DNA of 64,000 nucleotides from Candidatus Omnitrophota bacterium. GTDB lineage: Bacteria > Omnitrophota > Gorgyraeia > Zapsychrales > Zapsychraceae. Shown piece by piece: positions 15,898 through 54,072 of this stretch (the stretch's first letter is position 1; every line of letters begins with the position of its first letter). The DNA lies in contig JBFWOS010000001.1 of NCBI GenBank assembly GCA_050250375.1, forward strand, positions 407,090-471,089. The letters are read 5' to 3'. The position numbers were made by a program, and so were the translations under genes. A model generated the notes under the pieces. The model did no database searches, was not told where the DNA came from, and was given only the letters and a program-made list of their open reading frames with translations.

Positions 15898-15909
15898 AAT
15901 TTAATAAAA

Positions 15910-17205: not shown

Positions 17206-17206
17206 T

Positions 17207-18295
17207 TTATCTGATTTTCAATGTTGTCAATGCCACTAATGCCAAGATAACTCCCAATATCCAGAGCCGAATTATAATCTTTGACTCTTCCCATCCGGAC
17301 ATTTGCAAGTGGTGATGAAAAGGTGCCATTTTGAATATTCTTTTTCCCAAAACCCGAAAAGAGAAAACCTGTAATATAACCGATAACGCTTCAATTACAA
17401 ATACGCCCCCGATGATGACAAGCAATAATTCTTTCTTAATGAGTACCGCCATAACCCCCAATGTCCCCCCCAATGACAGAGATCCCGTATCCCCCATAAA
17501 AACAGTGGCCGGATGACAATTAAACCACAAAAATCCCAAACTAGCTCCAACCATAGCGGAACAAAAAACCGTGAGCTCAGCGGCCTCGGCAACATATGGA
17601 ATAAATAAATATTGGCTGATCGTAAGATGCCCCGTGATATAACTTAAGATCGCTAACGTCATACTAACAACCAGAACACACCCGATGGCCAAGCCATCCA
17701 AACCATCGGTTAAATTGACCGCATTCGATGTCCCAATGACAATTAACGCGACGAACGGCACATATAAAATACCCAGGTCAATTATAGTATCCTTCAAGAA
17801 AGGCAAATCCAATTGTGTCGATGTCCCGGGGTTAAAAAAAACATATGATCCGATAAAGCACCCCAGTAGAATCTCCCAAATCAATTTAGTTCTTTTTGTC
17901 AATCCTCGATTCCGGCCTAATTTCTTTAATTTTCGATAATCGTCGACCCAGCCTAAAACAGCAAGATAAACACAGGTCAATAACGTCAACAAAACAAAAG
18001 GATTAGTCAAATTCCCCCATAACAACACCGAAACAACGATACTGCCGATAACAAATAATCCTCCCATCGTGGGCGTACCTTCTTTCTTGCCATGAAACTT
18101 ATCCAGATCCGGGCAATCATCCCTCTTTGCAATTTCACCGATTTTCATCATCCTGAGTTTACGGATAAAATACGGGCCGAATACCACACAAATCAAAAAC
18201 GTGGTAAATGCCGCCATACCGGTGCGAAAAGTAATATATTTGAAAATATTAAACCCGAAATGCAACTCGCGAAATTGGGATAAAAAGTAGAACAT
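17207..18295 (-). CDS. mraY: Phospho-N-acetylmuramoyl-pentapeptide transferase
   Basis: Polytopic protein with NAVNLTDGLDGLA and HHH motifs. Confidence 0.9.
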   Translation of the reverse strand: MFYFLSQFRELHFGFNIFKYITFRTGMAAFTTFLICVVFGPYFIRKLRMMKIGEIAKRDDCPDLDKFHGKKEGTPTMGGLFVIGSIVVSVLLWGNLTNPFVLLTLLTCVYLAVLGWVDDYRKLKKLGRNRGLTKRTKLIWEILLGCFIGSYVFFNPGTSTQLDLPFLKDTIIDLGILYVPFVALIVIGTSNAVNLTDGLDGLAIGCVLVVSMTLAILSYITGHLTISQYLFIPYVAEAAELTVFCSAMVGASLGFLWFNCHPATVFMGDTGSLSLGGTLGVMAVLIKKELLLVIIGGVFVIEALSVILQVFSFRVLGKRIFKMAPFHHHLQMSGWEESKIIIRLWILGVILALVALTTLKIR

Positions 18296-18298
18296 ATT

Positions 18299-39830: not shown

Positions 39831-39935
39831 TAGTATTATATTATTACTATAAATAATATAGTCCTTTTTTGGTTTGTACTATATTCGAAATGATTAAACT
39901 TGTCAAGGAATTTGTCCTGCCCTATAATACCTTTT

Positions 39936-40403
39936 ATGACGAATGAAATGAAAGTTGCTCAAAAGCTTAAAGTTAGGAAGAAAACCCTGGCTCTGGCCGA
40001 ATCTTGCAGCGGAGGGTTGCTTTCCCACCGTTTGACCAATATCCCGGGCAGTTCACAATTCTTTTTTGGAGGGGTCGTCTGCTACAGCAACACATCCAAA
40101 ACCAAACTTCTTGGCATTCCTAATATGATCATCAAGTCCAAGGGTGCCGTCTCAAGTGATGTTGCTATATTGATGGCCAAAAATGTGAGGAAATTATTTA
40201 AGTCTGATTATGGCGTTGGAATAACGGGGATCGCCGGTCCGGATGGAGGCTCAAAATCAAAACCAGTCGGACTCACTTTTGTTGCTGTAGCCTCCTTAAA
40301 CGAAGTCCTTTGCATCAAATGCCAATTTCAAACAAACCGTGCCTCCAACAAACAACATGCCACAACGCAAGCATTAAAATTACTAGATGAAATTATTCTT
40401 TAG
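39936..40403 (+). CDS. CinA C-terminal domain protein (NMN deamidase PncC-like)
   Basis: LALAESCSGGLLSHRLTNIPGSS…GGVVCYSN…GITGIAGP. Start is taken at the ATG (MTNEMKV); the track begins at an upstream CTG. Confidence 0.8.
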   Translation: MTNEMKVAQKLKVRKKTLALAESCSGGLLSHRLTNIPGSSQFFFGGVVCYSNTSKTKLLGIPNMIIKSKGAVSSDVAILMAKNVRKLFKSDYGVGITGIAGPDGGSKSKPVGLTFVAVASLNEVLCIKCQFQTNRASNKQHATTQALKLLDEIIL

Positions 40404-40417
40404 GCCTGCTAACTCAC

Positions 40418-42769
40418 TTGAAAAATCCTCTTGATTATAACAAACTACCGCACCCAAAAGAAAAACACCTATTTCTTTTAATAGTAATCCTCGAATTTCT
40501 TCAACTAATCTATTGCGTAATGTCTAACCGCCTGGTTGTTCACGACACATTTTTCCGTTTTTATATGCAATATTATTATCTCAACACCTATGTTAACTAT
40601 TTGGAATTTCCTTTTTGGATTCCTTACTTGACACATGGCACACTCGCGACTCCATGGCAAGGACTTGTAGGAATCCATGGGATCTTTAACAACACACTTT
40701 TTCTAACCGGAAATATTCTGAAATATGTTAATTTTTTACCCATATTCTATATGGGCGTTTTCTTTGACCGGTTAGTCCTGTTACTCGGAACATGGTATTT
40801 TTCAAAACGTTTATACAACTCCCCCCTAGTGTCATTCTTTGTTACTACCAGCATTTTAATTTCAAGCGTTTGGGCAAGTCAAATTCATCTCAATTTTCTT
40901 TTTTACTATGCAATCCCTCTCATCATTTATTTATTCCATCGTTTTCTCGAAACACAAAAATGGCGATATTGTTTTTTAGCGCTGAATCTTTTCAGCCTTC
41001 AATGTGTTGATAAACTGTTCTATTTCTTACCGGTTGTCAGTTTGACCATCTCATTGTATTTCTTTTTTTATGCCCTTCTTAATTTCCAGGAAGTGTCCAG
41101 CCACATAAAAAAAATTAAATTTAATTTGAATGGAATATTCTGTCTAGCTCTAGTTCTAACATCCGCGCTTGTCGTCTTTTATTTGGTTAAAATAGGCATG
41201 GCTGGCGATATCGTTAAAAATGTTTTTCAAAGAAATGAAGACGGTAGTGTTAATTTGAATATATTCCTCACTTACTCCCAAGATAATAGTCTAACGAAAT
41301 GGGCAGAACTTCTGCTTGGACTATCGATTAAGAACGACACCACTCTTTATTGCGGACTATTAATCCCACTAATGGCCTTATTTGCCCTCTCATTTAATTT
41401 AAACCGGAAAAGCCTCCCTTTGATTCTAACCGGTTTCACTCTTTTCTTATTTAGTCTTGGCTCAATCGTTTCCATATTCTTTTATCATAGCTGGCCGACC
41501 ATGAAATTTTATAGACACATATTCCAAATCGTTTCAATCGTTCGACTTTTTTTGTGTTTATTTTCCGGCTTCGGGTTCTTGAAATTATTTGAGTTTATCT
41601 TTTCGCAAACGCGCTCCCGTCTAGAATGTATATGGCTAGCAACTACCTCTCTTGGCGTTCTAATCGCTGGTTTGATTTTCTTCAATCAGGCAGGAAACAG
41701 CACCTACATTGTTGAATTCATCAAGCCCTTAACTTACGACACAGATTTAAACCTACTTGCTGGTAATAGCAGCCATTACTATTCATATTTTCGATTCTTA
41801 GGGATTAAGTATATTCTTTGTTCTTTACTGGTATCTTCGTTGTTATTCTTGAACAGGCCATCGAGAAAATGGGTTGTTTTTCTTTTAATTATATTTCATT
41901 TATTAGATGGATACATCTATACTCTAAAAGAATTTAATAACAGAACTGTAGCTATATCCCCCAAACAACTTTCACTTACCCAATTTCAACCAATAATTTA
42001 TAATAATAGGCGTTCTCAAGATGAGTTTTCATTATTTAACAGTCGTTTTGATCTGTTAACACCGGAGTTACTGTCCAAAAGCATGCTCAGCTGGAATATC
42101 CATGCGCTCATGTTTAATGACCCCTTTTATTCACAGCTAAGAACAGACCATTGGTTAAAACCGTATGATCAGTATACTACTATTGACCCGCTTGGATTAA
42201 AGAATGCAACAAAGAAAAAGTCTGGAATAACGGAAAATAAAATCCAATTCTTCCGGCAAGCATACTGCTCGGATAGCACCAAGACATCAAGAGTCATGGC
42301 CCTCCCAGAAAACGATGGCAACAATTTATTTCTCGAGTGTTTACCCGACGAACCTCCAACAAATCTTCTCAGCAAAGATTGGGAGGTACAATCAGCATTG
42401 AGATCAAATGACAGACTTTCTCTTTCCCCCATTATAAATTTTTTCAGTTCTAACAGAATTGAAATTGAAGTTTATAATCCGAGTAAACAACCCATCTGGC
42501 TCTTTTATAGTGATGTTTGGCACCCGTTTTGGAAAGTACAAGTCAATCATAAGGATTCACCTCTTTACAAAGCGGATATAGCATACAAAGCTGTTTTACT
42601 TGTTCCTGGGACTAATAAAGTCCTTTTCTATTTCTCTGCATCCACTTGGAGACTTCTAACCTTTTTAATTATTCTTAATTCTTTTTTTTGGTTCTGTTAT
42701 ATAATTTATTTATTAAAGTCTACAATTTTCCAAAATGACTCTGAAAAGGCAAAAAAATTACATCTGTGA
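40418..42769 (+). CDS. Large polytopic membrane protein, YfhO-like (GT-C-type) candidate glycosyltransferase
   Basis: 783 aa. About 13 TM helices fill the first ~480 aa, followed by a ~250-aa soluble domain ending …WHPFWKVQVNHKDSPLYKADIAYKAVLLVPGTNKVLFYF, then a final TM helix. This is the YfhO-family architecture. Confidence 0.45.
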   Translation: MKNPLDYNKLPHPKEKHLFLLIVILEFLQLIYCVMSNRLVVHDTFFRFYMQYYYLNTYVNYLEFPFWIPYLTHGTLATPWQGLVGIHGIFNNTLFLTGNILKYVNFLPIFYMGVFFDRLVLLLGTWYFSKRLYNSPLVSFFVTTSILISSVWASQIHLNFLFYYAIPLIIYLFHRFLETQKWRYCFLALNLFSLQCVDKLFYFLPVVSLTISLYFFFYALLNFQEVSSHIKKIKFNLNGIFCLALVLTSALVVFYLVKIGMAGDIVKNVFQRNEDGSVNLNIFLTYSQDNSLTKWAELLLGLSIKNDTTLYCGLLIPLMALFALSFNLNRKSLPLILTGFTLFLFSLGSIVSIFFYHSWPTMKFYRHIFQIVSIVRLFLCLFSGFGFLKLFEFIFSQTRSRLECIWLATTSLGVLIAGLIFFNQAGNSTYIVEFIKPLTYDTDLNLLAGNSSHYYSYFRFLGIKYILCSLLVSSLLFLNRPSRKWVVFLLIIFHLLDGYIYTLKEFNNRTVAISPKQLSLTQFQPIIYNNRRSQDEFSLFNSRFDLLTPELLSKSMLSWNIHALMFNDPFYSQLRTDHWLKPYDQYTTIDPLGLKNATKKKSGITENKIQFFRQAYCSDSTKTSRVMALPENDGNNLFLECLPDEPPTNLLSKDWEVQSALRSNDRLSLSPIINFFSSNRIEIEVYNPSKQPIWLFYSDVWHPFWKVQVNHKDSPLYKADIAYKAVLLVPGTNKVLFYFSASTWRLLTFLIILNSFFWFCYIIYLLKSTIFQNDSEKAKKLHL

Positions 42770-43482
42770 ATAATATGAATTTCCTTCAAATCACTAAACG
42801 CATCTTACTGTTGAGCGGAATAATATTATTTTCTATTACAGTCGTTACATTGTACTTTAGCATGACCATAAATGTTCCCCCGATCCTACTTATCAAAACC
42901 TTTGTAAATCAAGGTTATGTTTTGCACCATAACCTGGTACGCCCCTGCTCTGCATTTACTTTAAATTTTAATATTTATATATATTTTGTTTTGTTCTTTT
43001 CTACAGCTATTGCATTCATTTTCCAAAAAACTATTGTCAGAAATCTTGAGTTCACCTTTCAACAATTTATTTTTTGTATAATAAGCGTCTTATTCACTTT
43101 AGTATCTATGAACCAACTGTTTAACTTTCAATATTATTTTAAGTTCGAACAACAATTATTCGGAAACAAATCTCTTAGGGAAAAAAATTCTAATCTTTAT
43201 GAGGGAATTGTTTACAGATACTCCATCTTTTGTCATAATTTTATAAATGGCGCCCAAAATGCTCAACTAATTACTGATCTGGATCTGAACCGAGAACCCG
43301 GCATGCTGGATCACCGGATGCTGGCGTATTACCTATATCCGATCGACATCCGTAATGTCCGAAGAAAAGCCCCCGACTACCTGCTATTCTTTATGAAAAG
43401 AAACGCCAGCGATCATGTCCCTGATAACTTTAAAATAATCGCTGTGATAAATAAGGATAATTTGATCGCAAAAAGAAAATAA
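42766..43482 (+). CDS. Cassette 1 small subunit: 3-TM protein with the conserved C-terminal 'DPGML-HR…YYLYPIDIRN' domain
   Basis: Paralogous to 45786..46586 and 48130..48870. The track start is a GTG; the first ATG is at 42775. It is translationally coupled to the following gene. Confidence 0.5.
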   Translation: MNNMNFLQITKRILLLSGIILFSITVVTLYFSMTINVPPILLIKTFVNQGYVLHHNLVRPCSAFTLNFNIYIYFVLFFSTAIAFIFQKTIVRNLEFTFQQFIFCIISVLFTLVSMNQLFNFQYYFKFEQQLFGNKSLREKNSNLYEGIVYRYSIFCHNFINGAQNAQLITDLDLNREPGMLDHRMLAYYLYPIDIRNVRRKAPDYLLFFMKRNASDHVPDNFKIIAVINKDNLIAKRK

Positions 43483-43485
43483 AGC

Positions 43486-44871
43486 ATGGAAACGTTCATC
43501 CTAATACTGAATACATTAATCTTCCCAACGGTCTTCGGCTATTACCTCATCTGTTTATTGGATAACAACCAACCCTTCCCCTTCTCAGTCAAAATTGCTA
43601 TTGGATACGGCCTTGGTTTAGGTTGCCTTACCCAGTGGATGTTAATTTTATGCACCCTAAATATCCCTTTATCTTTTACAGTAGTTATTTCTCCCTTATC
43701 AATTCTCCTAATGTTTGTCTTCATAAAAATTAAATGCAAAAAAAGAATCTTGGGACCAACGGACGAACAATCTCAGGGGCTAAAATTAAATTTCTTATCA
43801 ATTCTACTCACAACCTATATACTTTTGTGTCTTGTATTTATTTTCTGGAGGACTTTCAACATACCTTTGTCTACGTGGGATGCATTTTCGTATAATGGCT
43901 TTGTCGCAAAAGCCATTTATTTTGAAAAATCATTATATTACTTGCCTAATATGCCTCATTACGAATACCCCCTGCATGCCCCTTTTATGCAAGTCTGGGC
44001 GTCCTTGTGTCTGGGGGAGTGGAACGATCTCTTTATCAATATTTTCTTCCCCTTTTATCTTCTCTTTTTCTTGGTTTTCTTATTTTATTTCTTAATTCAA
44101 TTTACTAGCCGTACATGGGCACTTCTCGGCCTAGCGCTTATTGTTTCTTCAAACTTATTGGTTCAACACGCTAGTATCGCGTATCGAGACATCCCGTTAA
44201 TGTACTACGTTAATATTTCGTTGTTGCTTTTAATTCTCGCCAATAAAGACGACGGATCGCGGAAAAAATTATTTTTATCCGGATTAATGGCGGGTATCGC
44301 TACTTCTGTCAAATTGGACGCTACAGGATATATCGTGGTGTTAACCTTTATCTTGTTATTCATGCTCTTTCTGAATAACTCAACCGCCACAAAACAAAAG
44401 ATTATTAATTTCCTTCTTTTTACTGTTCCTTGTTATTCGATCTTACTTTTCTTCAATATATATAAAATTCTAGTTGTGGAACCCAAAGCGCCTCAAATAA
44501 CTGGAGAAAAATTGAGCTTTGATCTTTATTCAGTCAAACTCAAATTCGGTGTTGAAGCACTAACACGATTTAATACCGTTGTAGCGAGAATCATGGACAA
44601 CTTATTCTTAAGCGGGAATTGGGGAATTGTTTGGATAATCTTCTTTTTTAGCTTGGTCCATTTACAAAAGGCAGAAAAATCGCTTGAAATAAGAATACTG
44701 TTAGTGGCGTTAATTGCCTTTTTCGGTTTACAAATAGTCGGGTATACGTTTACCCAATATTATTATTGGATTGCCGACACACATACGTCATTATCCCGGC
44801 ATTTACTCAGCCAGTTTCCTATTGTTGTTGCTCTAATTATACTTTTAAATGGACAAAAAATACAACCATAA
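43486..44871 (+). CDS. Cassette 1 large subunit: ~12-TM polytopic membrane protein (GT-C-like candidate)
   Basis: Conserved motifs shared with its two paralogs: FGYYLI, WDAFSY…AKAIYFEKS…YP, HASIAYRDIPLMYY, LSGNWGIVW. Confidence 0.55.
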   Translation: METFILILNTLIFPTVFGYYLICLLDNNQPFPFSVKIAIGYGLGLGCLTQWMLILCTLNIPLSFTVVISPLSILLMFVFIKIKCKKRILGPTDEQSQGLKLNFLSILLTTYILLCLVFIFWRTFNIPLSTWDAFSYNGFVAKAIYFEKSLYYLPNMPHYEYPLHAPFMQVWASLCLGEWNDLFINIFFPFYLLFFLVFLFYFLIQFTSRTWALLGLALIVSSNLLVQHASIAYRDIPLMYYVNISLLLLILANKDDGSRKKLFLSGLMAGIATSVKLDATGYIVVLTFILLFMLFLNNSTATKQKIINFLLFTVPCYSILLFFNIYKILVVEPKAPQITGEKLSFDLYSVKLKFGVEALTRFNTVVARIMDNLFLSGNWGIVWIIFFFSLVHLQKAEKSLEIRILLVALIAFFGLQIVGYTFTQYYYWIADTHTSLSRHLLSQFPIVVALIILLNGQKIQP

Positions 44872-44876
44872 CTCGA

Positions 44877-45752
44877 TTAAGACTTTACCAACAATAAATT
44901 CACATACCTTTCGCCGCGACACATTTCAATAATCTCTTCATTTTTGCATTGCCCGATGGTTCGTTCATGATCGTTGATTACAGAAATCTTAAATCCATGC
45001 TCCTCGATCAATTTAAGAAACTCAATCGGTTTAGACCGATAATGCGTAAAAACATCCGGAAAAAACTCGCAGAAAATAACTAAACTCTTATGACGGCTTA
45101 AAAAACTTTTCATCCCTTCGAATGCCAAAGGTTCCGCCCCTTGAATATCCATCTTGATTACATCGTATCGTTCATCAGTTTTAAAAAACTCGTCTAATTT
45201 TATTGACTGCACAGTAAAGGATGTCCTCTGATCACCCGAATCAAAAATTCGATGATCCCCTCTATTCTCTTCACAAAAATATAACTTTAACTCCCCCTTT
45301 AAATTTGATACCGCGCCCTGAAATACAGTCACATTTGCACATAAGTTTACATCTATATTTTTCTGAAGCAACCGATAGTTTTCCGGGTCCGGCTCAAACG
45401 CTGTTACGTGGCCTTCTTTACCAACCCATTTGGAAATTTGTAACGTATGATATCCTATGTTGGCTCCAATATCCAATACCTTCATGCCCGGCTTTATATG
45501 TTCTTTCATTAATGTTGTTTCATAGTCCTCTAGGGTGGCATATTTCCAAAATAACATGGCTGCTATTCGGTCCATTGTGTTTCCGTACATTATTTGTCCA
45601 CGGACAACGACCGCTAGATCTTTCCTTCGTTTCAATATTTTGGCGAGCATTCTTAGAAAAGGCCTAAACCAAGCTTGACGGGACAAAACATACAAGACCC
45701 TGAGGATAAAATAGACTGTCGACTTAAAGATGTATGCGCCGGTTATTTTCAC
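44877..45752 (-). CDS. FkbM-family SAM-dependent methyltransferase
   Basis: MKVLDIGANIGYHTL…AFEPDP…IKMDIQGAE. Confidence 0.8.
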   Translation of the reverse strand: MKITGAYIFKSTVYFILRVLYVLSRQAWFRPFLRMLAKILKRRKDLAVVVRGQIMYGNTMDRIAAMLFWKYATLEDYETTLMKEHIKPGMKVLDIGANIGYHTLQISKWVGKEGHVTAFEPDPENYRLLQKNIDVNLCANVTVFQGAVSNLKGELKLYFCEENRGDHRIFDSGDQRTSFTVQSIKLDEFFKTDERYDVIKMDIQGAEPLAFEGMKSFLSRHKSLVIFCEFFPDVFTHYRSKPIEFLKLIEEHGFKISVINDHERTIGQCKNEEIIEMCRGERYVNLLLVKS

Positions 45753-45785
45753 TGAATAGGAGAATGATAGATCTTTGTTAATTGA

Positions 45786-46586
45786 ATGCGCTGTACTATA
45801 TTGGAAATGATAACCCTTGTCAATAAAATTGTGCTGGCCTATAATGATTTAAATCGTATTAAAAACAAAGAAAGCATGAACAGATCCATTCTAAAATATT
45901 ATATTGCCCTCAATATACTTACTTTTTATCTTTTATTGAGCGGCCTCGCATTATATATGAAACTTCCAGAAAAGCATCTATTTGGTTTTCTGACAGAAAC
46001 TTCGTTCAAGCCGCACCAAAATATAATGCTCTATGGACAATTAAATCATATCCCCTTTCCAATATTCTTGTATGTTGCCATATTTGTCTTAACCATCATC
46101 TTATGGGTTTTTAATCGAGTGATCCATTCTGCGAATCCGAACAACTATCCTCTCGACTGCGTTCGGACTTTTTTCCTAATAAGCACCCTGTCAGTATTCA
46201 CGTTTCTATTAATAATACAAACAATATGTATATCTAAGGTTTGGGGCAAGTCTTTCGAACTTTTCGCAAATAAGACGGAAGTTGAAAAATTTCATGGATC
46301 AACCGTACAACAAAGCTTAATTATGGCTGAATTCTGTAAAAAATTCGCTCCTGGCACACAAAAAGCCAAATTCGAGACTGACCTGGATATCACGGAAGAT
46401 CCGGGCATGTTAATTCACAGGAGCTTTGCCTTCTACCTCTATCCCATTGATATCCGAAATATTTACCGCGGCGAGCCAAATTTATGGATTGCATTTCAAA
46501 AAAAAGAGGCAATTCGACATGTCCCCCGCGGATACAAAGTCCTCGGCATATTGGATGACCAAAATATAATAGCCATGAAAGAATAA
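45786..46586 (+). CDS. Cassette 2 small subunit (paralog of 42766..43482)
   Basis: C-terminal DLDITEDPGMLIHRSFAFYLYPIDIRN. The stop overlaps the next start (TAATG). An alternative start at M31 is possible. Confidence 0.5.
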   Translation: MRCTILEMITLVNKIVLAYNDLNRIKNKESMNRSILKYYIALNILTFYLLLSGLALYMKLPEKHLFGFLTETSFKPHQNIMLYGQLNHIPFPIFLYVAIFVLTIILWVFNRVIHSANPNNYPLDCVRTFFLISTLSVFTFLLIIQTICISKVWGKSFELFANKTEVEKFHGSTVQQSLIMAEFCKKFAPGTQKAKFETDLDITEDPGMLIHRSFAFYLYPIDIRNIYRGEPNLWIAFQKKEAIRHVPRGYKVLGILDDQNIIAMKE

Positions 46587-47962
46587 TGGATTTGCTATCG
46601 GTTACATTGTATTTATTAATCCCAACCACGTTGGGGTATTTCCTCGTAACCCTGCTCAGTTGGAAAACCCCCCTTCCATTCTTCGTAAAATTTATGCTTG
46701 GATATGGCATTGGAGCTGGCCTTTTAACCCACTGGGCGGTTATTCTCAGTTATTTCAAAATACCTTTTTGTGCAGTGTCAATCAATGTTCCGATCTTAGC
46801 CGTTACTTTACTTCTCTTTTGCTTAATTGCCAGAATAAAAAACAAGCCAAACTTAAAATTACTCAAATACAAACTAAAATTCGATACTATAAATTCCATA
46901 TTTCTCTTATTCAGTATTTACATTATATGTTTTATTTTTTGGTCTGGCACAAATATACCTATATCCGAATGGGATACCTATTCCACATTGGGACTAAAAG
47001 CAAAAACCATTTATTACGACAAATCCTTGAATTATTTACCGTATATCGGAAAATTTAATTACCCCATTCACTTAGAATTAATGCTTGCCTGGCTTTCATC
47101 TTGCCTTGGATACTGGGACAACACTGTCATAAAATTCGTTTTCCCAATGTCCTGCCTGGCCTATCTGGTCATACAGTATTATTTCTTAAGGCACTTTACT
47201 TCTGCTCGTTGGGCCTTATTTAGCATCGTATTACTTTTGTCTTCAGCATTTGTCGTTTATCATTCTTATATTTCATACCGGGACATTACCATGATGTTTT
47301 ACAACTGCACAGCCATTCTCTTAATTATTCTTTGGTATAGTCAAAAGCAGAATATGTATCTTGTCTTGGGAGCATTATTCTCAGGAATGACATCATTTAT
47401 AAAATTGGAGGGCTTCGGATATCTTGGCATTCACAATCTTCTGGTTTGGATGCTTATGTATTACATAAATTTTATTGACACGAAAAAAAAGACTAAATTA
47501 ACCATCCTGTTTGGAACCATCAGCTTCGGGATGTATGCACTTTTCATGTTTTATCGAAAACTTTACATCCTTCCTTTTGTACCACCGGAATTGCTTAATT
47601 CCGAACATTTTAACCTTTCACACCTCACTTTAAACCTCTCTGCCGACACTTTGTTCAGGATAAAAATCGTTATGAGACGCTACATCACGAACTTCTACTT
47701 AACCGGTAATTGGTCACTTGTATGGTTGTTTTTTCTTATCAGCGTTCTCCAAATATCAAACAAAAGAATATCTATGGAAATTAAAGCGTTTTTCTTTGTT
47801 TTAGGATTATTCTTTGTGGTATATCTTTTTTCTTATATCTTTACACAACATTACTTGTGGGTTGCATTTAAAGCCGATGTATTATCCCGATCTTTGCTCC
47901 ATATTTTCCCACTCATCACCATTTTAATTCCTTTATTAAATGTCCCGGAAGAGGTGAATTAG
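46586..47962 (+). CDS. Cassette 2 large subunit (paralog of 43486..44871)
   Basis: LGYFLV, WDTYST…AKTIYYDKS…YP, HSYISYRDITMMFY, LTGNWSLVW. Confidence 0.55.
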   Translation: MDLLSVTLYLLIPTTLGYFLVTLLSWKTPLPFFVKFMLGYGIGAGLLTHWAVILSYFKIPFCAVSINVPILAVTLLLFCLIARIKNKPNLKLLKYKLKFDTINSIFLLFSIYIICFIFWSGTNIPISEWDTYSTLGLKAKTIYYDKSLNYLPYIGKFNYPIHLELMLAWLSSCLGYWDNTVIKFVFPMSCLAYLVIQYYFLRHFTSARWALFSIVLLLSSAFVVYHSYISYRDITMMFYNCTAILLIILWYSQKQNMYLVLGALFSGMTSFIKLEGFGYLGIHNLLVWMLMYYINFIDTKKKTKLTILFGTISFGMYALFMFYRKLYILPFVPPELLNSEHFNLSHLTLNLSADTLFRIKIVMRRYITNFYLTGNWSLVWLFFLISVLQISNKRISMEIKAFFFVLGLFFVVYLFSYIFTQHYLWVAFKADVLSRSLLHIFPLITILIPLLNVPEEVN

Positions 47963-48129
47963 GCCAATGGAGCGCCCCAATGAAACCTGGCCACCATTTT
48001 GCATCAGAAAAGTTAATTTCTTTACAAAATCTTGTTAACATAAATAATAGTGTTATAAAATTACCTTACAAATAATATCCAAAACCCAATACAAAAATAT
48101 TAAACCATAAAGAAATCCGGGACATCGAT

Positions 48130-48870
48130 ATGTTCAAAATAGAAAAAAAAGATATCCTACTCACTTGCGCAGCATTCTCACTCTTTCTACTGCCAATTAT
48201 TTGCATGATGTCTTTCGCACTCGATATTCCTATTTCGACCGCAGTAACATTGATTCAGGCCAAACTATACAGGCCACATTTCAACATTTTTGAAGTCTAC
48301 CAAATTGGCGACGTTCATCCATTAAAAGCCCTATATATCGTATTACTTCTAACTGCACTCATTCTCATACTTTTCTACAGGATATCTCTTCCTAACAAAC
48401 TTTCAAAATATGCCCCACAACTTATATTTCTTACATATCTTCTGGGAATTCTAACAGTTGCAACCTTAAACTTTGTCATGCGAATAAAATATTATAAACA
48501 TGACCTGAAACTTTATCATGGAAAAACCTTAGATGAAAAAAACTTTCTTTTAAACCATGAGCCTTATCTTTTTGTTGAAAAGGTCCGGAATGTACTATCC
48601 GGTCGTCATAGTGGAGAATTCATCACAACCGAAAATCTTCTAGAGGATCCCCACATGACAACACACCGGATACTGTCTTTTTACCTCTATCCCATTATTT
48701 CATTACGTCTAGACAACAATACCCCAAAAGACATATTTATCTACTATCATACTGATGATTCTCGACTAAGGATACCTAACGATCAGAAAATACTGACCAC
48801 TTCCAATGACCTTAGTCTTACATTAACAATCAAAAATAAGGATTCATCCATACGTGATATTAATTTCTAA
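48130..48870 (+). CDS. Cassette 3 small subunit (more diverged paralog)
   Basis: C-terminal LEDPHMTTHRILSFYLYPI. It overlaps the next gene by 17 nt. Confidence 0.45.
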   Translation: MFKIEKKDILLTCAAFSLFLLPIICMMSFALDIPISTAVTLIQAKLYRPHFNIFEVYQIGDVHPLKALYIVLLLTALILILFYRISLPNKLSKYAPQLIFLTYLLGILTVATLNFVMRIKYYKHDLKLYHGKTLDEKNFLLNHEPYLFVEKVRNVLSGRHSGEFITTENLLEDPHMTTHRILSFYLYPIISLRLDNNTPKDIFIYYHTDDSRLRIPNDQKILTTSNDLSLTLTIKNKDSSIRDINF

Positions 48871-50251
48871 TATTCTGATTAGTTTGCTTATACCCCTTTG
48901 CTTTGGGTATTTAATCTTACTTAAATTATGTAAGTTTAGATTGCCATTGCCTCTTGAACTATCCATTGGATTTGGAACTGGATTTGGACTGTTATCCATT
49001 TGGATGTTGTGCTTAGATATTCTTAATCTTCCGTTCAACCGCACGAACATTAGCGCACCAATATTGATCTTATCTTGTGTTCTTGCAATAAATGTAATGA
49101 AAAGCAAGAAAAACAAAGAAAAACCTCTCCTGTTTAACCAAGAAACTCCGATTACCAATCAATTATCTGATTTTTTTCAAATTACGATTATGGGCATTCT
49201 AATTACATATATCCTATTGAATATTTTCTATGTATATTGGAGAGCGTTGACGTTTCCTGTATACTGCTGGGATGAAATCTCAACTATTGCGTTTAAGGCC
49301 AAAGTTTTCTTCCACGAAAAATCTATCCCCGAATTGAACTTACTTCCCCATCAATCATATCCGCTTTTAACTCCTCTAGTCGAGTCTTGGACAGCTTTTA
49401 ACTTAGGCTATTGGAATGACAGTTTAATTAAGATAATTTTTCCTTTAATTTTCTCAGCGTACTTATGCACTCATTATTATTTCCTTTGTCTCAATACGAA
49501 TCGACGGTGGGCTATTTGGGGGGTAGCATTATTGCTCTCAAGCAACTTCTTTTTATTTCACGCAACAATCGCCTATCGAGATTTCATTCTCATGTATTAT
49601 ACGTGTTCAGCGATTATCTTGTTGTTGTTCTGGCGGCAAACTCGTTGCAATTCATTTCTTTTCCTATCGTCGCTATTCTCAGGATTTGCAACATTTACAA
49701 AACTTGAAGGAACAGCCTACATGTTAATCTTTCTGATTATTTTTCTAATAATAGAAGTTAAAAATCAAACGATCAAGGCAACCAGAAGAATTAAAAACGC
49801 ACTTATTTTCACAATTCCAAGTTTATCCTTAGCATCCTTATTTCATTTATATAAAATATTCCATAATGCCGAAAAAGATGGTCTCGGTCACATAGACAAA
49901 ACTCATTTTGAAGTTTCTTTTGATAAAGCCTCACTGACACCCCAAATCCTCAGCAGCTTTTCTGAAAATCTATTCCTTTCAGGCAATTGGAACCTGCTAT
50001 GGGGCGCTTTACTTATCACTCTTCTACTGTCCTTAAGAAGGCCAAAAACGTTTGAATCTAATATACTATTAACCAGTTTATTTTTATTTTTTGGGCTGCA
50101 TACCTGTGTCGCCGCCTTCTCTTCAAATTTCATCTGGATTGCTGGGGAATTAAATACCACCACGTTATCTAGACTAATCCTGCACTTCTTTCCGTTGGCA
50201 GTTTTGGCGATTATTCTAATCAATTTTTCTTTATTGAAAGACAGTGATTAG
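48854..50251 (+). CDS. Cassette 3 large subunit (paralog of 43486..44871)
   Basis: FGYLIL, WDEIST…AKVFFHEKS…YP, HATIAYRDFILMYY, LSGNWNLLW. Confidence 0.55.
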   Translation: MILISNILISLLIPLCFGYLILLKLCKFRLPLPLELSIGFGTGFGLLSIWMLCLDILNLPFNRTNISAPILILSCVLAINVMKSKKNKEKPLLFNQETPITNQLSDFFQITIMGILITYILLNIFYVYWRALTFPVYCWDEISTIAFKAKVFFHEKSIPELNLLPHQSYPLLTPLVESWTAFNLGYWNDSLIKIIFPLIFSAYLCTHYYFLCLNTNRRWAIWGVALLLSSNFFLFHATIAYRDFILMYYTCSAIILLLFWRQTRCNSFLFLSSLFSGFATFTKLEGTAYMLIFLIIFLIIEVKNQTIKATRRIKNALIFTIPSLSLASLFHLYKIFHNAEKDGLGHIDKTHFEVSFDKASLTPQILSSFSENLFLSGNWNLLWGALLITLLLSLRRPKTFESNILLTSLFLFFGLHTCVAAFSSNFIWIAGELNTTTLSRLILHFFPLAVLAIILINFSLLKDSD

Positions 50252-51030
50252 GTTGTTTTTTGAAGTTCAATTTTACAAAACATTCCCACCCACGAATTTA
50301 AAGGTGAAATTAGGACTTCAAGAAATTTAACCAAAGGATATGTGCATGACGGCACAAGTTGTCTCATTGAGACGCCACCACTGAGCAAATATCGAATAGG
50401 TGTATGATTTTGGTATGATTTAATCTTAAGAGAAGGATACTCTTGTTGAAATTTGGCGCGATCCCTAAAAAATATTATCCACGGGAGTGCTCCATTGGCA
50501 TCTGACATCGGGCCATCACCTTCAATATTCCACCCGGAGGCCGGATCAAATTGCTCGTGATGGAAATTCTGAAACACGAATCTGCTCCATATCGTATTCG
50601 CCGGCTCAATCATAACAATTCTTCCATTGACTTTAAGACAGCGGTCCATTTCGGTTAAAATTCTTCGAGGATTCTTTATGTGATGCAAAACATCAATCAT
50701 TAGAAATGCATCGACACTATTATTTCCAAACGGCATCGCCTCAGCGGAGAAACAAAGATCAATCCCCTTTAAATCAAGTACATCTGAGGTGAAAACTTTT
50801 GGATTGATTTCCTTTATAAACCCGCCCCCACTTCCTAATTCTATAAACTTTCCGTTAGGGAATTGTTGAATAATTTTCTTAAATATCAGATAATTTTCAT
50901 TATAGATTTTCGTTAGAAAGGGTTTATTTTTGATAATACGGGAATGTAATTCAGTGGTACGTGGATCATCCAGACTTGTTATCGTATCAACTTCTGGGAG
51001 TTTCAACCATTTTTTTAGGTGTTCAATCAT
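50248..51030 (-). CDS. Class I SAM-dependent methyltransferase
   Basis: ELGSGGG…VDAFLMIDVLHH…GRIVMIEP. Confidence 0.75.
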   Translation of the reverse strand: MIEHLKKWLKLPEVDTITSLDDPRTTELHSRIIKNKPFLTKIYNENYLIFKKIIQQFPNGKFIELGSGGGFIKEINPKVFTSDVLDLKGIDLCFSAEAMPFGNNSVDAFLMIDVLHHIKNPRRILTEMDRCLKVNGRIVMIEPANTIWSRFVFQNFHHEQFDPASGWNIEGDGPMSDANGALPWIIFFRDRAKFQQEYPSLKIKSYQNHTPIRYLLSGGVSMRQLVPSCTYPLVKFLEVLISPLNSWVGMFCKIELQKTT

Positions 51031-51098: not shown

Positions 51099-51833
51099 TT
51101 AATTCCCTTTCTTTTCAGCCGTTATATATAGTGAACCCGAAATCTCCTTAAGCAAGGCTGCCTTTTCCAAGACATTACCGAACTTGGAGACAATAGGAAT
51201 CAAGACTTCTGGTGTTAAGGGATGCAGAAAATCAAACGGTTGGATTCTAATATTTGTAAAATGACACTTTTCCAATAACCCTAATAATTGCCACCGCGAG
51301 AAAGCTGTTTCATCAGGGCTTACTCGCGCCAGCTTTCGAATAAATTTAAAACTTCGCTCCAAGAAAATTTGCGGATTCAATATATTGGGTTCAGTAAAAG
51401 AAATACCCCCTCCAGGTTTAAGAACCCGGTGGCATTCTATTAAAGCCTTTTCAATGTCCAAATGATGTAGAACCGAACTCCCTATAACAGCATCAAATTC
51501 CGCATCCCTATAAGACAATTCATAGGCGTTTTCAAGTTTAAAAGTGACATTTGAAGAAGTCACACGGTTCCGGGCGACCTCCAGAAGATCCGGTGAAATA
51601 TCATTTGCGATTATGTTCGCGCCGCTTTGCGCCAAATATTCTGTGAAATATCCAACACCACATCCCAATTCTAACACCGTCATACCTTTCAAAATATGCC
51701 TGGTGAGCATTTCAACACGTCTTTGTCTACGAATCTGTCCAGCTGGAGTTTCCCAATACCATAAGGTACCAGACCAGGATTCTTTCAATAGTTTTCCATG
51801 TTCAATTTCATTCTTAATGCGCTGATCAGACAT
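51099..51833 (-). CDS. Class I SAM-dependent methyltransferase
   Basis: VLELGCGVGYFT…FDAVIGSSVLHHL…LKPGG. Confidence 0.8.
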   Translation of the reverse strand: MSDQRIKNEIEHGKLLKESWSGTLWYWETPAGQIRRQRRVEMLTRHILKGMTVLELGCGVGYFTEYLAQSGANIIANDISPDLLEVARNRVTSSNVTFKLENAYELSYRDAEFDAVIGSSVLHHLDIEKALIECHRVLKPGGGISFTEPNILNPQIFLERSFKFIRKLARVSPDETAFSRWQLLGLLEKCHFTNIRIQPFDFLHPLTPEVLIPIVSKFGNVLEKAALLKEISGSLYITAEKKGN

Positions 51834-51840
51834 GGCAGGA

Positions 51841-53274
51841 CTAATCTTCTCTTTTAATATAGAATTCTCGGCGGGGAACCAAAATAAGTTCTCTAAATCC
51901 TCTTATACACGCTGCCAGCAAATGCATACCGTGCTTGAAAGATCTCATTTTTGATTCTCCGGAAACCCGTGATTTATAATGAACCGGGACTTCCATGATT
52001 TTACTTCCCAGTTTAGCAGCTCCAAATAACAGGTCAAAATCTCCCCACTTGTCTTTTCCCCACTTTATGCGTTTGAAATCTTTCTTATAAAGAGCTTTCG
52101 TTCCGCAAAGTGTATCTGTCAGATTCTGTTGAGTAATAAAACTCATAATCCAACCAAAAATTTTATTCCCGAATAAATTAATCATACGCATAGCCTGGTC
52201 TTCCATCGGATAGACAAGTCGTGTCCCATTCACAAATTGACAGAGCCCTTTGTTTAATGGGTTAAAAAATCGTGGGAGCTCTTCAGGCGGAGTTGAAATA
52301 TCGGCATCCAAGATCATGATTATTTCTTCCTCCGCAGCATCAAATCCGGCCTTAACAGCCTGGCCTTTCCCGCGATTCGGGCTATAATCAATTAGTTTTA
52401 AATTCGGAAATTCAGCCTGCAAGGACCGGACTTTAGCCGCTGTTCCGTCTTTACTTCCGTCATTGACAACAACAATCTCCGTTCGTTTACCCATATGAGG
52501 TACCCGTCGAATAGCATCCTCAATATTCCCTTCTTCATTATAACAAGGGATGATGACGGAACATCCACATCCCAAATCCGTTTTATTTTCAGGCTCAGGT
52601 TGGATCGTAAGATACTGGGTTGAAGAAAGCAAACTGAATGGCCATAACCGGATTCCTACCGAATTGGCTAAATATGATAAAAACGGAATATATTTTGGAA
52701 AAAGCAACAAGTGTCCATAATAACTGACAGAAAAATCCATTAACTCTATAACTTTAAAGAGACTGCGCCGTTCAATAAAGTTATGCGGACCTTCCGGCAT
52801 CTTTGCATTGATTTTTTCCATGAACATCAGGATCGGGTCCCACCATGGATTAATCGTTGTGAGAAAAATCTTGGTCGTTGGTTTACAAAACTTGTAGGCA
52901 CTTCGGAATACATCCATGACATCGTATACATGATCAACGATATCGACCATAATAATATAGTCAAACTTTTCATCCAAGTTAAAATCTTCCACCGGTGAAT
53001 GAATAAATTCATACTGGGGGAATTTCTTTCTGGCAACCTTGAGCATTTCTTCACTGAGATCCACCCCAACCCCCCTTGAAGGCTCCATATATGCCAAGAT
53101 TTCTCCCGTACCGCATCCAAATTCAAGAACGGAACTTCCTTTGGGAATCATCTGTGAAATAAAAGCCTTAAGGGTATTGTAATAATACGCATTTTTTTGC
53201 TTCCAATAGTCGTAATTCGGGGCAATTTTATCAAAATGTTGCCGGACTTCATCTTTGGTCATTATAGGTGTCAT
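51841..53274 (-). CDS. Fusion protein: N-terminal class I SAM methyltransferase plus C-terminal GT2 polyprenol-phosphate glycosyltransferase (DPM1/CsbB-like)
   Basis: N-terminal VLEFGCGTGE…DYIIMVDIVDHV. C-terminal SVIIPCYNEEGNI…VVNDGSKDGT…ILDADIS…DTLCGTKA. Confidence 0.75.
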   Translation of the reverse strand: MTPIMTKDEVRQHFDKIAPNYDYWKQKNAYYYNTLKAFISQMIPKGSSVLEFGCGTGEILAYMEPSRGVGVDLSEEMLKVARKKFPQYEFIHSPVEDFNLDEKFDYIIMVDIVDHVYDVMDVFRSAYKFCKPTTKIFLTTINPWWDPILMFMEKINAKMPEGPHNFIERRSLFKVIELMDFSVSYYGHLLLFPKYIPFLSYLANSVGIRLWPFSLLSSTQYLTIQPEPENKTDLGCGCSVIIPCYNEEGNIEDAIRRVPHMGKRTEIVVVNDGSKDGTAAKVRSLQAEFPNLKLIDYSPNRGKGQAVKAGFDAAEEEIIMILDADISTPPEELPRFFNPLNKGLCQFVNGTRLVYPMEDQAMRMINLFGNKIFGWIMSFITQQNLTDTLCGTKALYKKDFKRIKWGKDKWGDFDLLFGAAKLGSKIMEVPVHYKSRVSGESKMRSFKHGMHLLAACIRGFRELILVPRREFYIKRED

Positions 53275-53283
53275 ATTCGATCC

Positions 53284-54072
53284 TTACCGTCTATCCCGTA
53301 ATTTTGCCAACAATCTTAAAATTTCAATATAAAGCCATATAAGAGTTACCACCAGCCCGAAAGCCCCATACCACTCCATAAATTTTGGCAACCCGTTTCT
53401 TGAACCGTTCTCAATAAAATCAAAATCCAAAACTAAATTTAAAGCGGCAATGGTTACTACAACCAAACTGAATCCAATCCCTATGGGACCGCTTCCACGC
53501 ATGCTTGAAAACAAGTTTGATCCAAATAAACTGGCGATAAATACAACTAAATAAAATAAAGCAATCGCTCCGGTTGCCGCAATAATTCCCATTCGAAACT
53601 TGTGTGTCACCTTGATAAGTCCAGATTTATAGATAAGAAGCAAGGAGAATAAGGTCCCAAACGTCAATCCCACCGCCTGAATGACCAGTCCGGGATACTG
53701 AAGTTCAAAAAAAGCAGATATGCCGCCTATGGCGAGTCCCTCAAGTAATGCGTAAACAGGGGCTGTCACCGGAGACCATTCTCTCTTAAAACAGGTAATC
53801 AAGGCCACAATAAACCCGCCTATAATTCCGGCCATCATCGCCGTCATTACAACCCCCGGAACTTGGGCAGCGGCACCATCGGGCGCGCCTTCCAGAATCG
53901 GTGAAACATAAGAAGAAATTTTTCCCCACACCCACGTTGCACTCAACATCAATAACCCCAATAGGACAAATGTCTTATTCACGGTTCCTTGGATGGTCAT
54001 ACTTTGCCCCACACCAAAATTTCCGGACTGTTCAAAAGCCCGACTATTTAATACTGGATTTGAAGTTCTCAT
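53284..54072 (-). CDS. Bax-inhibitor-1/YccA-like 7-TM membrane protein (tentative)
   Basis: 262 aa with seven hydrophobic segments and a basic C-terminus (LAKLRDRR). Confidence 0.45.
   Translation of the reverse strand: MRTSNPVLNSRAFEQSGNFGVGQSMTIQGTVNKTFVLLGLLMLSATWVWGKISSYVSPILEGAPDGAAAQVPGVVMTAMMAGIIGGFIVALITCFKREWSPVTAPVYALLEGLAIGGISAFFELQYPGLVIQAVGLTFGTLFSLLLIYKSGLIKVTHKFRMGIIAATGAIALFYLVVFIASLFGSNLFSSMRGSGPIGIGFSLVVVTIAALNLVLDFDFIENGSRNGLPKFMEWYGAFGLVVTLIWLYIEILRLLAKLRDRR

Follow-up and report, generated by a model that had tools for sequence, protein, structure and literature searches.

The S-L gene pairs and their neighborhood

The window, a 64,000-nucleotide stretch of DNA from an uncultured Omnitrophota bacterium, contains three paralogous plus-strand genes for the polytopic membrane proteins L1 (43486..44871; 461 aa), L2 (46586..47962; 458 aa), and L3 (48854..50251; 465 aa, with a GTG start). 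A preliminary description had reported three paralogs of ~460 aa, and we found these ORFs to be present, with 31-36% identity and BLASTP E-values of 1e-64 to 1e-84. In pairwise BLASTP, L1 and L2 are 35.7% identical over 448 aa (E 2e-84), L1 and L3 35.8% over 461 aa (E 8e-75), and L2 and L3 31.3% over 466 aa (E 6e-64), and this similarity between the protein sequences is far above chance. Because L1-L3 share no similarity at the nucleotide level, the duplications are old. The three proteins have in common (F/L)GY at residue 16-17, WD(A/T/E)xS at residues 131/129/139, and YP(L/I)(H/L) at residues 161/159/169 in L1/L2/L3, as well as (V/K)AK...(Y/F)x(E/D)KS, GxW(N/D)(D/N), HxxI(A/S)YRD, and L(S/T)GNW. 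The motifs listed in the preliminary description are thus present, albeit with small deviations from its wording (ISYRD, LTGNW, and GYWDN in L2; YPLL in L3), and LSR is an additional shared motif not on that list.

Each L gene is preceded by a paralogous gene, also on the plus strand and absent from the preliminary description, encoding a membrane protein of ~240-266 aa, here referred to as S. S1 (42766..43482; 238 aa) stops 3 nt ahead of the L1 start; the stop of S2 (45786..46586; 266 aa as the longest ORF, 261 aa as called by NCBI) shares 1 nt with the L2 start; and S3 (48130..48870; 246 aa) runs 17 nt into L3. S2 and S3 have 24-34% identity to S1 in a MAFFT alignment, and the BLASTP local identity among the paralogs is 24-30% (E 5e-31 to 8e-11). 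S1 is predicted to have three transmembrane (TM) helices followed by a periplasmic C-terminal domain of ~125 aa. It carries the motifs YxPxxN, TDLD, and LYPIDIR; N56 and the latter two are the conserved polar motifs of S. No sequence relative of the S family was found in Pfam, NCBIfam, or the PDB, and S is a partner protein family not previously described.

The surrounding neighborhood is a conserved housekeeping one, with cinA, riboflavin genes, BaxI, and pgpA/pgsA. Immediately upstream of S1, and overlapping it by 4 nt, lies a plus-strand gene for a polytopic membrane protein of 783 aa with a C-terminal soluble part (40418..42769). This protein has no match in a Pfam scan and resembles a DUF2079 protein weakly in BLASTP (E 5e-4 when just the two sequences are compared; 25% identity across 182 aa). 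Apart from the window, it was encountered only in L001, the closest relative. Possibly another GT-C-like enzyme, it is counted only tentatively as a member of the system described below. Four minus-strand genes encode proteins with methyltransferase domains. An FkbM-family SAM methyltransferase (44877..45752; PF05050 at 8.8e-21, TIGR01444 at 3e-28) is convergent with L1 and syntenic in L001, L002, and L045; a class I SAM methyltransferase of 260 aa (50248..51030; PF08241 at 2.4e-11) adjoins S-L genes in L008, L010, L022, L030, and L044; and another of 244 aa (51099..51833; PF08241 at 1.8e-25) is syntenic in L002, L005, L006, L010, L022, and L045. The fourth is a methyltransferase-GT2 fusion of 477 aa (51841..53274; PF00535 at 1.5e-29). 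Its NCBIfam matches, all under cut-off, are to AglJ, dolichyl-P-hexose transferase, and ArnC, and the nearest solved sequences to its GT2 domain are DPMS (5mlz), ArnC, and GtrB. Of the loci examined, about half have the fusion gene at most ~4.5 kb downstream of L; among S-L modules of other genomes, about half do not have it as a neighbor. Based on these sequence similarities, the fusion is probably a polyprenyl-phosphate sugar synthase and a candidate donor supplier for L1-L3.

S and L form a near-obligate pair

Among Omnitrophota genomes, S lies directly upstream of L for 32 of 34 L genes, at a spacing of -20 to +26 nt that is a 4-nt overlap in 14 of them. Conversely, in 19 metagenome loci retrieved by an S motif, L is directly downstream of S in all 19. 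The distance matrices of S and L are correlated (Mantel r 0.80, a value reached in 0 of 2000 permutations), and the S and L trees contain the same three clades. Moreover, two independent assemblies, with a shared CinA/riboflavin neighborhood, encode a natural S-L fusion of 720 aa (P0181; matched to S by hhalign at a probability of 99.6%), and the predicted topologies are compatible with such a fusion, as the S C-terminus and the L N-terminus are both outside. Distant relatives have shorter, one-TM partners encoded upstream; in two loci the genes overlap by 4 nt, and in a third they are 1 nt apart. Comparative genomics thus establishes S and L as a near-obligate pair.

Each of the three S-L copies of the window falls in an old clade different from the other two, and other Omnitrophota have orthologues in these clades. 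L2 is in a clade of its own with orthologues in L002, L010, and L007, while the L3 clade includes L010, L022, L008, L013, L015, and L019. In the paralog expansion noted previously, the unit that expanded is the two-gene S-L module and not L alone. That the clades are old and have orthologues elsewhere in the phylum fits the earlier idea of diverged specificities. Altogether, the locus holds three ancient copies of a GT-C module made up of two genes.

Predicted fold and putative active-site residues of the L proteins

An AlphaFold2 model of L1, built on a 64-sequence alignment (pLDDT 92.5, pTM 0.94), has an N-terminal extension with three TM helices and an ArnT/PMT-like core with 10 TM helices. 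In a Foldseek search of the PDB with this model, ranks 1-26 are all GT-C enzymes except for one GPI-transamidase chain, and include Pmt1/2, Pmt4, ArnT, ALG9/12, AftA/B, AglB, PglB, STT3, EmbB, and PimE. The probability is 1.00 at the top and the TM-score (query) 0.38-0.52; the E-values are modest, at 4.5e-3 and weaker, with none ≤1e-3. At the sequence level, L1-L3 have no match at E ≤0.1 in a Pfam/NCBIfam scan, and the L-family profile retrieved no GT-C enzyme from the PDB. The same profile reaches a protein named "glycosyltransferase family 39" by NCBI (2e-12), and hhalign aligns the L family to Escherichia coli ArnT (E 1.7e-3). PMT_2 is matched at E ≤1 by 14 of 35 L-family members; P0040, P0010, P0018, P0026, P0031, and P0046 score above its 26.1-bit gathering score, and P0019 and P0061 above the PMT cut-off. 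These similarities support the GT-C assignment made in the preliminary description, and it is very likely that L1-L3 are divergent glycosyltransferases of the ArnT/PMT type (GT-C).

The key residues of L1 are D132, Y161-P162, D235, K276, W379, and R438. Among 64 L-family members, D132, Y161, P162, and R438 are invariant, Y233, W379, and K276 (K or R) are nearly so, and D235 is Asp in 54. In the hhalign alignment, which pairs residues 197-313 of L1 with residues 97-208 of E. coli ArnT, D235 falls on D135 and K276 on K179; these correspond to D158 and K203 of CmArnT, a salt-bridged pair that binds acceptor/sugar (PMC7801869). Position 3 of the PMT_2 profile leads to P162 in L relatives and to P62 of the "EKP" in E. 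coli ArnT. The Asp-to-Pro spacing of 30 residues in L1 versus 31 in ArnT places D132 on ArnT D31 (CmArnT D55). R438, in the loop preceding the tenth core TM helix, has the same position as the phosphate-binding Arg of STT3/PglB/TMTC (PMC7801869). Conserved L residues coincide with known ArnT active-site positions (D132=D55, D235=D158, K276=K203). The positions D, YP, YRD, K, NW, and R are all kept in L2. The YFEKS of L, considered as the counterpart of ArnT YFEKP, was rejected; the invariant Y161-P162 corresponds instead, and EKS has no conserved Lys across the 64 members. Likewise, the Arg/Asp pair of YRD noted in the preliminary description gives way to D235 and K276 as the functionally meaningful pair. 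The Arg of YRD is kept in only 37 of the 64 members.

Applying the positive-inside rule to the AlphaFold2 helix boundaries, we found K/R-rich loops at 26-32, 85-102 (on average 5.6 K+R), 205-208, 255-258, 297-301, and 398-399, which places the WD, YRD, TKLEG, SGNW, and LSR motifs outside. By the same charge pattern, D132, D235, K276, and R438 face the periplasm. Together with the homology to residues in periplasmic loops of ArnT (PMC7801869), this argues that the motifs lie in extracytoplasmic and not in cytoplasmic loops.

L1-L3 share with ArnT the predicted GT-C fold, a first periplasmic loop with two juxtamembrane helices, the Asp of that loop, the conserved Pro at the same distance from this Asp, the Asp/Lys pair of periplasmic loops 2 and 3, and a nearby GT2 gene of the ArnC/DPMS/GtrB type. 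Unlike ArnT, they have ~100 extra N-terminal residues (the three TM helices), a core of just 10 TM helices without a C-terminal periplasmic domain, scores under the Pfam thresholds, a separate S partner encoded upstream, and a locus without Ara4N pathway genes. PMT/GT39 enzymes (Pmt1-Pmt2, 6p25; Pmt4, 9i5k) and TMTC-type PMT_2 proteins are the top Foldseek matches of L1; they use polyprenyl/dolichyl-P-sugar donors and have a catalytic Asp in loop 1, as L would by homology, and some relatives score above the PF02366/PF13231 thresholds. However, L is of bacterial origin and carries neither a MIR nor a TPR soluble domain, and a protein acceptor is not implied. Also, the "DE" motif of ArnT and PMT is usually cut to "D" in L, with the second acidic residue replaced by A in L1 and by T in L2.

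A proposed extracytoplasmic glycosylation system

We consider it likely, at about 70%, that the locus encodes a lipid-carrier-dependent extracytoplasmic glycosylation system comprising L1-L3 with their S partners and the methyltransferase-GT2 donor synthase. That L1-L3 are instead polysaccharide polymerases or ligases (Wzy, WaaL, or EpsG-like) or transporters, with a superficial likeness to GT-C motifs, would in principle be allowed by their size and polytopy without a Pfam match of their own, and by the weak Foldseek E-values. We regard it as highly improbable: no Wzy, WaaL, SEDS, or EpsG structure is among the Foldseek matches, the few transporter or channel chains have a probability of ≤0.12, none of the 35 L members matches Wzy_C/EpsG in Pfam, and the conserved residues fall on ArnT catalytic positions. 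Fold and profile similarity thus favor a GT-C enzyme.

A somewhat less unlikely, but still doubtful, reading keeps L1-L3 as GT-C enzymes and makes S the cognate acceptor, i.e., a membrane-anchored periplasmic protein that its L glycosylates, or else a factor for assembly or stability. Strict adjacency and co-divergence fit an enzyme-substrate or enzyme-chaperone pair equally well, and S is without similarity to any known GT domain; however, the S-L fusion and the closely spaced one-TM partners of distant relatives point to S as a stoichiometric partner and not as a substrate, and the conserved polar motifs of S typify a functional site, not a glycosylation target. It is even less probable that the three TM helices of S combine with the three-TM extension at the L N-terminus into a built-in polyprenyl-P-sugar flippase replacing one of the GtrA/SMR type. 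None of the scanned locus proteins or annotated neighbors in syntenic loci matches a flippase family, the extension weakly matches EmrE/SMR (E 0.05-0.08), and in Gtr and Arn systems, the flippase is proposed to be of the SMR type (PMC11127046). Yet, the EmrE match is not significant, E. coli ArnE is not matched, single-TM partners could not build such a unit, and a flippase gene could sit elsewhere in the genome.

The glycosylation system that we favor resembles an established three-component paradigm of polyprenyl-P-sugar synthase, flippase, and GT-C enzyme, in which multiple GT-C paralogs confer different specificities (PMC11127046, PMC8035078). As in the GtrA/GtrB/Gtr*, CsbB/GtcA/YfhO, and GT136 systems, a GT2-type synthase is encoded beside at least one GT-C gene. 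In contrast to these systems, the locus has no recognized GtrA, SMR, or MATE flippase gene, its GT2 enzyme carries a fused methyltransferase domain, each GT-C protein is paired with a small partner of its own, and the neighborhood is not a phage or O-antigen cluster. In our model, the methyltransferase-GT2 fusion would place a sugar, possibly methylated, on polyprenyl phosphate at the cytoplasmic face; a putative flippase would move it to the outer leaflet; and L1, L2, and L3 would each pass the sugar on to an acceptor in the envelope. The expected catalytic scheme is that of ArnT/PMT: by homology, D132, which opens the first periplasmic loop, would act on or position the acceptor, the D235/K276 pair would bind sugar and acceptor, and Y161-P162 and R438, just before the last TM helix, would hold the donor phosphate. 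Single-chain GT-C enzymes such as ArnT, PglB, and PMT bear their own soluble periplasmic domain. Each L would be paired in function with its own S, and we suggest that S most likely provides in trans the soluble periplasmic, acceptor-recognition domain missing from L. The three S-L pairs probably differ in acceptor site or linkage.

Three paralogous membrane proteins with a predicted GT-C fold

L1, L2 and L3 (43486-44871, 46586-47962 and 48854-50251, all on the + strand) are polytopic membrane proteins of ~460 aa, each encoded by the second gene of a two-gene unit. The first gene of each unit encodes a small membrane protein (S1, 42766-43482; S2, 45786-46586; S3, 48130-48870; all +). The preliminary description had regarded the three large proteins as paralogs and, consistently, they align end to end with 31-36% identity (BLASTP E 6e-64 to 2e-84). 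The motifs it listed were found in L1-L3 with small departures (ISYRD, LTGNW and GYWDN in L2; YPLL in L3), and its inventory of the three large proteins stands; the S genes upstream, themselves mutual paralogs (24-34% MAFFT identity to S1; BLASTP E 5e-31 to 8e-11), had gone unreported. No nucleotide-level similarity was detected among the three modules, arguing that the duplications are old and ruling out a recent tandem duplication.

An L1 sequence identical to that in the window is present in the MAG GCA_050181705.1. Of 29 related genomic loci, 28 come from MAGs titled Candidatus Omnitrophota/Omnitrophica or "uncultured Planctomycetales", and one is titled only "bacterium". A word-indexed search returned only 32-65 relatives of L; an exhaustive profile search with the broad family alignment A3 (50%-identity cluster representatives) returned 998 at E ≤ 1e-30 and 10,260 at E ≤ 1e-3. 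The L family is therefore sizeable, yet nearly all of it is metagenomic and without annotation, and the taxonomically identified members are overwhelmingly Omnitrophota. Locus scans were done with narrower alignments; A3 and a second broad alignment, A6, were too diverse.

None of L1, L2 and L3 has a Pfam or NCBIfam match at E ≤ 0.1, and all three fall short of the Pfam gathering thresholds of PMT_2 (PF13231) and PMT (PF02366). A PMT_2 match at E ≤ 1 was found in 14 of 35 relatives; several relatives, at 30-40% identity, lie only narrowly above the gathering thresholds (27-30 bits vs 26.1 for PMT_2; 29-35 bits vs 22.7 for PMT), and the family profile retrieved a protein named "glycosyltransferase family 39" (E 2e-12). 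An AF2 prediction for L1 from a 3-sequence alignment was unusable (pLDDT 40); the model used here was built on a 64-sequence alignment and reached a pLDDT of 92.5 and a pTM of 0.94. In this model, helices 131-147 and 164-176 lie between two TM helices, 103-125 and 183-204. The predicted protein has the polytopic domain, the juxtamembrane helices in the first extracytoplasmic loop and the similarity to solved GT-C enzymes that define the GT-C_A class (ArnT, PMT, STT3/PglB, Emb/Aft) structurally. Among Foldseek matches to the PDB, ranks 1-26 are all GT-C proteins except for one GPI-transamidase chain and include Pmt1/Pmt2, Pmt4, ArnT, ALG9, AftA, ALG12, AglB, AftB, PglB, STT3, EmbB and PimE; probabilities reach 1.00 and query TM-scores are 0.38-0.52, with modest E values (4.5e-3 at best). 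The L-family profile searched against PDB sequences found no GT-C enzyme and only a non-significant match to EmrE. Altogether, the structural model supports the earlier GT-C proposal, for which structure prediction and Foldseek had been suggested as checks, and places L as a divergent member of the known superfamily, of the ArnT/PMT kind.

The same description had named similarity to Wzy, EpsG or transporters, or a cytoplasmic location of the motifs, as outcomes that would speak against GT-C. Neither was observed. No Wzy, WaaL, EpsG or SEDS protein was found among the Foldseek PDB matches or the Pfam matches of 35 family members, and the few transporter or channel chains in the Foldseek list have probabilities ≤ 0.12. 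Based on AF2 helix boundaries and family-wide K+R counts, the predicted cytoplasmic loops of L are 26-32, 85-102 (mean 5.6 K+R), 205-208, 255-258, 297-301 and 398-399. The N-terminus, the WD/EL1 loop (126-182), YRD (231-234), TKLEG (273-278), the long loop 335-381 with SGNW and the LSR loop (423-443) are predicted to be periplasmic; therefore, the motifs are not predicted to lie in cytoplasmic loops.

L also differs from characterized relatives. Compared with ArnT, it carries ~100 extra N-terminal residues forming three TM helices, followed by ten core TM helices; the chain stops after the last of these without a soluble domain. In contrast, ArnT has a C-terminal periplasmic domain, PMTs have a MIR domain and TMTCs have TPRs. 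Of the "DE" acidic pair in loop 1 of ArnT and PMT, the second residue is not kept in L1 and L2, the residue after D132 being A in L1, T in L2 and E in L3. Because L1-L3 are below the Pfam thresholds and lack both the soluble extracytoplasmic domain and the "DE" pair, L is not a clean member of PMT_2/GT39/GT83. A further observation concerns its distant relatives P0050, P0052 and P0053, each of 641 aa: P0050, the one scanned, owes its additional length to a HAD-IIIA (GmhB-like) phosphatase domain joined C-terminally to the GT-C core, which may hint at the sugar pathway in that lineage.

Conserved residues shared with ArnT

Across 64 family sequences, D132, Y161, P162 and R438 are invariant, Y233, W379 and K276 are near-invariant (position 276 is K or R in all 64) and position 235 is Asp in 54. 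Based on hhalign (L1 197-313 against residues 97-208 of E. coli ArnT, EcArnT) and mapping of EcArnT to a second ArnT (CmArnT), D235 corresponds to EcArnT D135 (CmArnT D158) and K276 to EcArnT K179 (CmArnT K203). P162 corresponds to P62 in "YFEKP" of EcArnT, both occupying position 3 of the PMT_2 profile, and, judged by its distance from this Pro, D132 corresponds to EcArnT D31 (CmArnT D55; D77 in Pmt1), the Asp lying 30 residues before the Pro in L1 and 31 before it in ArnT. D55, in the CmArnT numbering of PMC7801869, is the universally conserved Asp of the GT-C catalytic loop, while D158 and K203 form a salt-bridged EL2/EL3 pair touching acceptor and sugar. By these correspondences, L possesses the invariant Asp that opens the first extracytoplasmic loop, in a loop predicted to be periplasmic, and the EL2 Asp and EL3 Lys of GT-C_A enzymes. 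In GT-C enzymes, the phosphate of the lipid-linked donor is bound by a conserved Arg in the loop before TM10 (PMC7801869); R438 may correspond to this phosphate-binding Arg of STT3/PglB/TMTC, going by its predicted periplasmic location in the loop just before the tenth core TM helix, not by residue-level alignment to a solved enzyme. We infer that these residues have the corresponding catalytic roles in L.

Two other candidate correspondences were set aside. The resemblance of "YFEKS" in L1 to "YFEKP" in ArnT is coincidental, as the profile coordinates put "EKP" on E160-Y161-P162, and "YFEKS" is not conserved in the family; of the Arg/Asp pair that had been proposed as conserved ("YRD"), the Arg is kept in only 37 of the 64 sequences. 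Together, the PMT_2 matches, Foldseek, the hhalign alignment to ArnT and the residue conservation contradict the idea that L is a polymerase, ligase or transporter, which we consider highly improbable.

A small membrane protein coupled to L

S has three hydrophobic segments and a C-terminal domain of ~125 aa; the charge distribution predicts that the N-terminus is inside and the C-terminal domain outside. Among its conserved features, loop 1 has YxPxxN, TM3 a Gln and the soluble domain TDLD...P...LYPIDIR. The S profile had no match above chance level in Pfam or among PDB sequences (e.g., TolQ, E 0.12), and hhalign found nothing between S and ArnT, the L family or the N-terminal domain of the long L relative P0058; hence, the idea that S arose as an ArnT-type periplasmic domain split off on its own, or as a copy of some stretch of L, has no sequence support.

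S and L are very strongly coupled, in three ways. In Omnitrophota genomes, S lies directly upstream of L in 32 of 34 cases, with a gap of −20 to +26 nt and a 4-nt overlap in 14; one exception (L005) arises from an L ORF that was extended too far, and in the other (L027) an S-like gene lies downstream of L, ahead of a DUF2079 protein. Conversely, in all 19 metagenome loci retrieved by the S motif [YF][YFH]LYPIDI, L is directly downstream. Pairwise distances of S and L are correlated (Mantel r 0.80, reached by 0 of 2000 permutations), and the three pairs in the window fall into the same three clades in the S and L trees, each with orthologues in other MAGs, arguing that the S-L pair was duplicated as a unit long ago. 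Finally, P0181 (720 aa) is a natural S-L fusion, with S over 46-222 (hhalign probability 99.6%) and L at 261-716. Two independent assemblies carry it, both times beside the same CinA/riboflavin genes, and it is compatible with the predicted topologies, in which the C-terminus of S and the N-terminus of L are both outside. In the tools and papers searched, we found no description of such a family, near-obligate to, co-evolving with and sometimes fused to L.

Variants of the module were also observed. In L027 (2307-4639), the S-like gene, of 176 aa, precedes the DUF2079 protein instead of L; in another locus (L015:8491-11398), two tandem S genes precede a single L; and in L059-L061 (e.g., L061:1500-6999), two tandem S-L modules lie beside a methyltransferase-GT2 fusion. 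In three distant relatives of L that fall outside the core clade, P0047 (metagenome), P0055 (Thermodesulfobacteriota) and P0062 (annotated as GT39), a gene for a 142-147-aa protein with one TM helix lies immediately upstream (L038:5573-6004, L040:4187-4615 and L042:468-911), overlapping L by 4 nt in two cases and separated by 1 nt in the third. None of these has a Pfam match, and one weakly matches the C-terminal half of S; a small partner may therefore be a general feature of the wider PMT_2-like clade.

The locus and a proposed pathway

The S-L modules are interspersed with and followed by genes on the − strand for an FkbM-family methyltransferase (44877-45752), two class I methyltransferases (50248-51030 and 51099-51833) and MT-GT2, a methyltransferase-GT2 fusion (51841-53274). 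The block is flanked upstream by a CinA-domain gene (39900-40403, +) and downstream by a gene for a Bax-inhibitor-like BaxI_1 membrane protein (53284-54072, −); these flanks recur in many Omnitrophota genomes, a surprisingly stable synteny. A gene on the + strand (40418-42769) that overlaps S1 by 4 nt encodes a 783-aa polytopic membrane protein with a soluble C-terminal part. It has no Pfam match, is unrelated to the L profile and was found elsewhere only in L001, the closest relative; its N-terminal TM region weakly resembles the DUF2079 (PF09852) protein at L027:2840-4639 (25% over 182 aa, E 5e-4 in two-sequence BLASTP), and it may be a fourth GT-C-like enzyme. Elsewhere in the window, a dcw division and cell-wall cluster (8635-22808, −) encodes FtsA, MurC-type and other Mur ligases, MurG and a PBP3-type transpeptidase, arguing that the organism makes peptidoglycan, and a 511-aa ORF (2814-4349) has no Pfam match.

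The MT-GT2 fusion is kept across many Omnitrophota loci; about half of the examined loci have it close to S-L. Among solved sequences, its GT2 domain comes closest to Pyrococcus dolichol-P-mannose synthase, ArnC and GtrB (E 2.5e-17 to 2e-12); among NCBIfam models, AglJ and dolichyl-P-hexose transferase score best for the fusion. All of these are polyprenyl-phosphate glycosyltransferases. Among solved sequences, the N-terminal methyltransferase domain is closest to the NDP-aminosugar N,N-dimethyltransferases TylM1 and DesVI, but at generic class I levels. We infer that the donor of L is a polyprenyl-phosphate-linked sugar used at the extracytoplasmic face. The arrangement resembles an established multi-component scheme, in which a synthase of the lipid-P-sugar is combined with a flippase and a GT-C enzyme (PMC11127046, PMC8035078). 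Compared with a Gtr-type three-component system, the locus has a GT2 synthase-like enzyme and the GT-C enzyme three times, while no flippase (GtrA/SMR/MATE) was recognised among the scanned locus proteins or the annotated neighbours in syntenic loci. Our preferred explanation, which we consider fairly likely, is that MT-GT2 would synthesize a polyprenyl-P-sugar, possibly methylated, that a flippase would bring it to the outer leaflet and that each S-L pair would transfer the sugar to a different presumed envelope acceptor or position, with S as the source of the periplasmic domain missing from L.

Other roles for S can be envisaged. The adjacency, co-divergence and fusion establish the coupling, and the function within the L enzyme that we suggest for S is putative; that S is instead a substrate or a chaperone is unlikely. 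A bolder version of the enzyme reading, which we judge quite improbable, is that S and L form a split, self-contained GT-C holoenzyme of a type undescribed in bacteria. Here, S would bring to the active centre, where L has only a single Asp, another acidic site (TDLD, DxD-like), as well as a periplasmic domain that recognises the acceptor. Channelling or flipping of the polyprenyl-P-sugar would fall to six extra TM helices, three in S and three at the N-terminus of L, two proteins thus doing the job of three in Gtr/Arn systems.

A further reading, to which we give even lower odds, is that S and the N-terminal extension of L serve as a built-in flippase. This extension (L1 residues ~15-90, window 43528-43755) has a conserved GYGLGLG motif; it and the family profile repeatedly resembled EmrE/SMR at non-significant levels (E 0.05-0.08), and hhalign of L against E. 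coli ArnE gave nothing. In Arn/Gtr systems, the flippases are proposed to be of the SMR type (PMC11127046), and the resemblance is therefore a lead only; the built-in flippase is proposed from it and from the lack of a recognised flippase gene.

Bacterial GT-C enzymes decide how the envelope (lipid A, O-antigens, teichoic acids, proteins) is decorated and, to our knowledge, are usually regarded as single-chain enzymes. Here, adjacency, co-divergence and a natural fusion link a large clade of L proteins, whose copies in the window neither Pfam nor NCBIfam detects, to an undescribed family of small membrane proteins. Should S prove to be a true subunit, multi-subunit GT-C enzymes could be studied in a simple bacterial model, and S would be a new domain family for annotation. 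An arrangement of three ancient S-L modules around MT-GT2 in a conserved Omnitrophota core locus was likewise undescribed in the tools and papers searched. Omnitrophota are believed to be ultra-small and to depend on hosts. The analysis gives a predicted function to a conserved core locus in this uncultured phylum, whose cell-surface biology is essentially unknown, and the annotation of these "hypothetical proteins" can be changed to PMT_2-like GT-C glycosyltransferases that have a partner.
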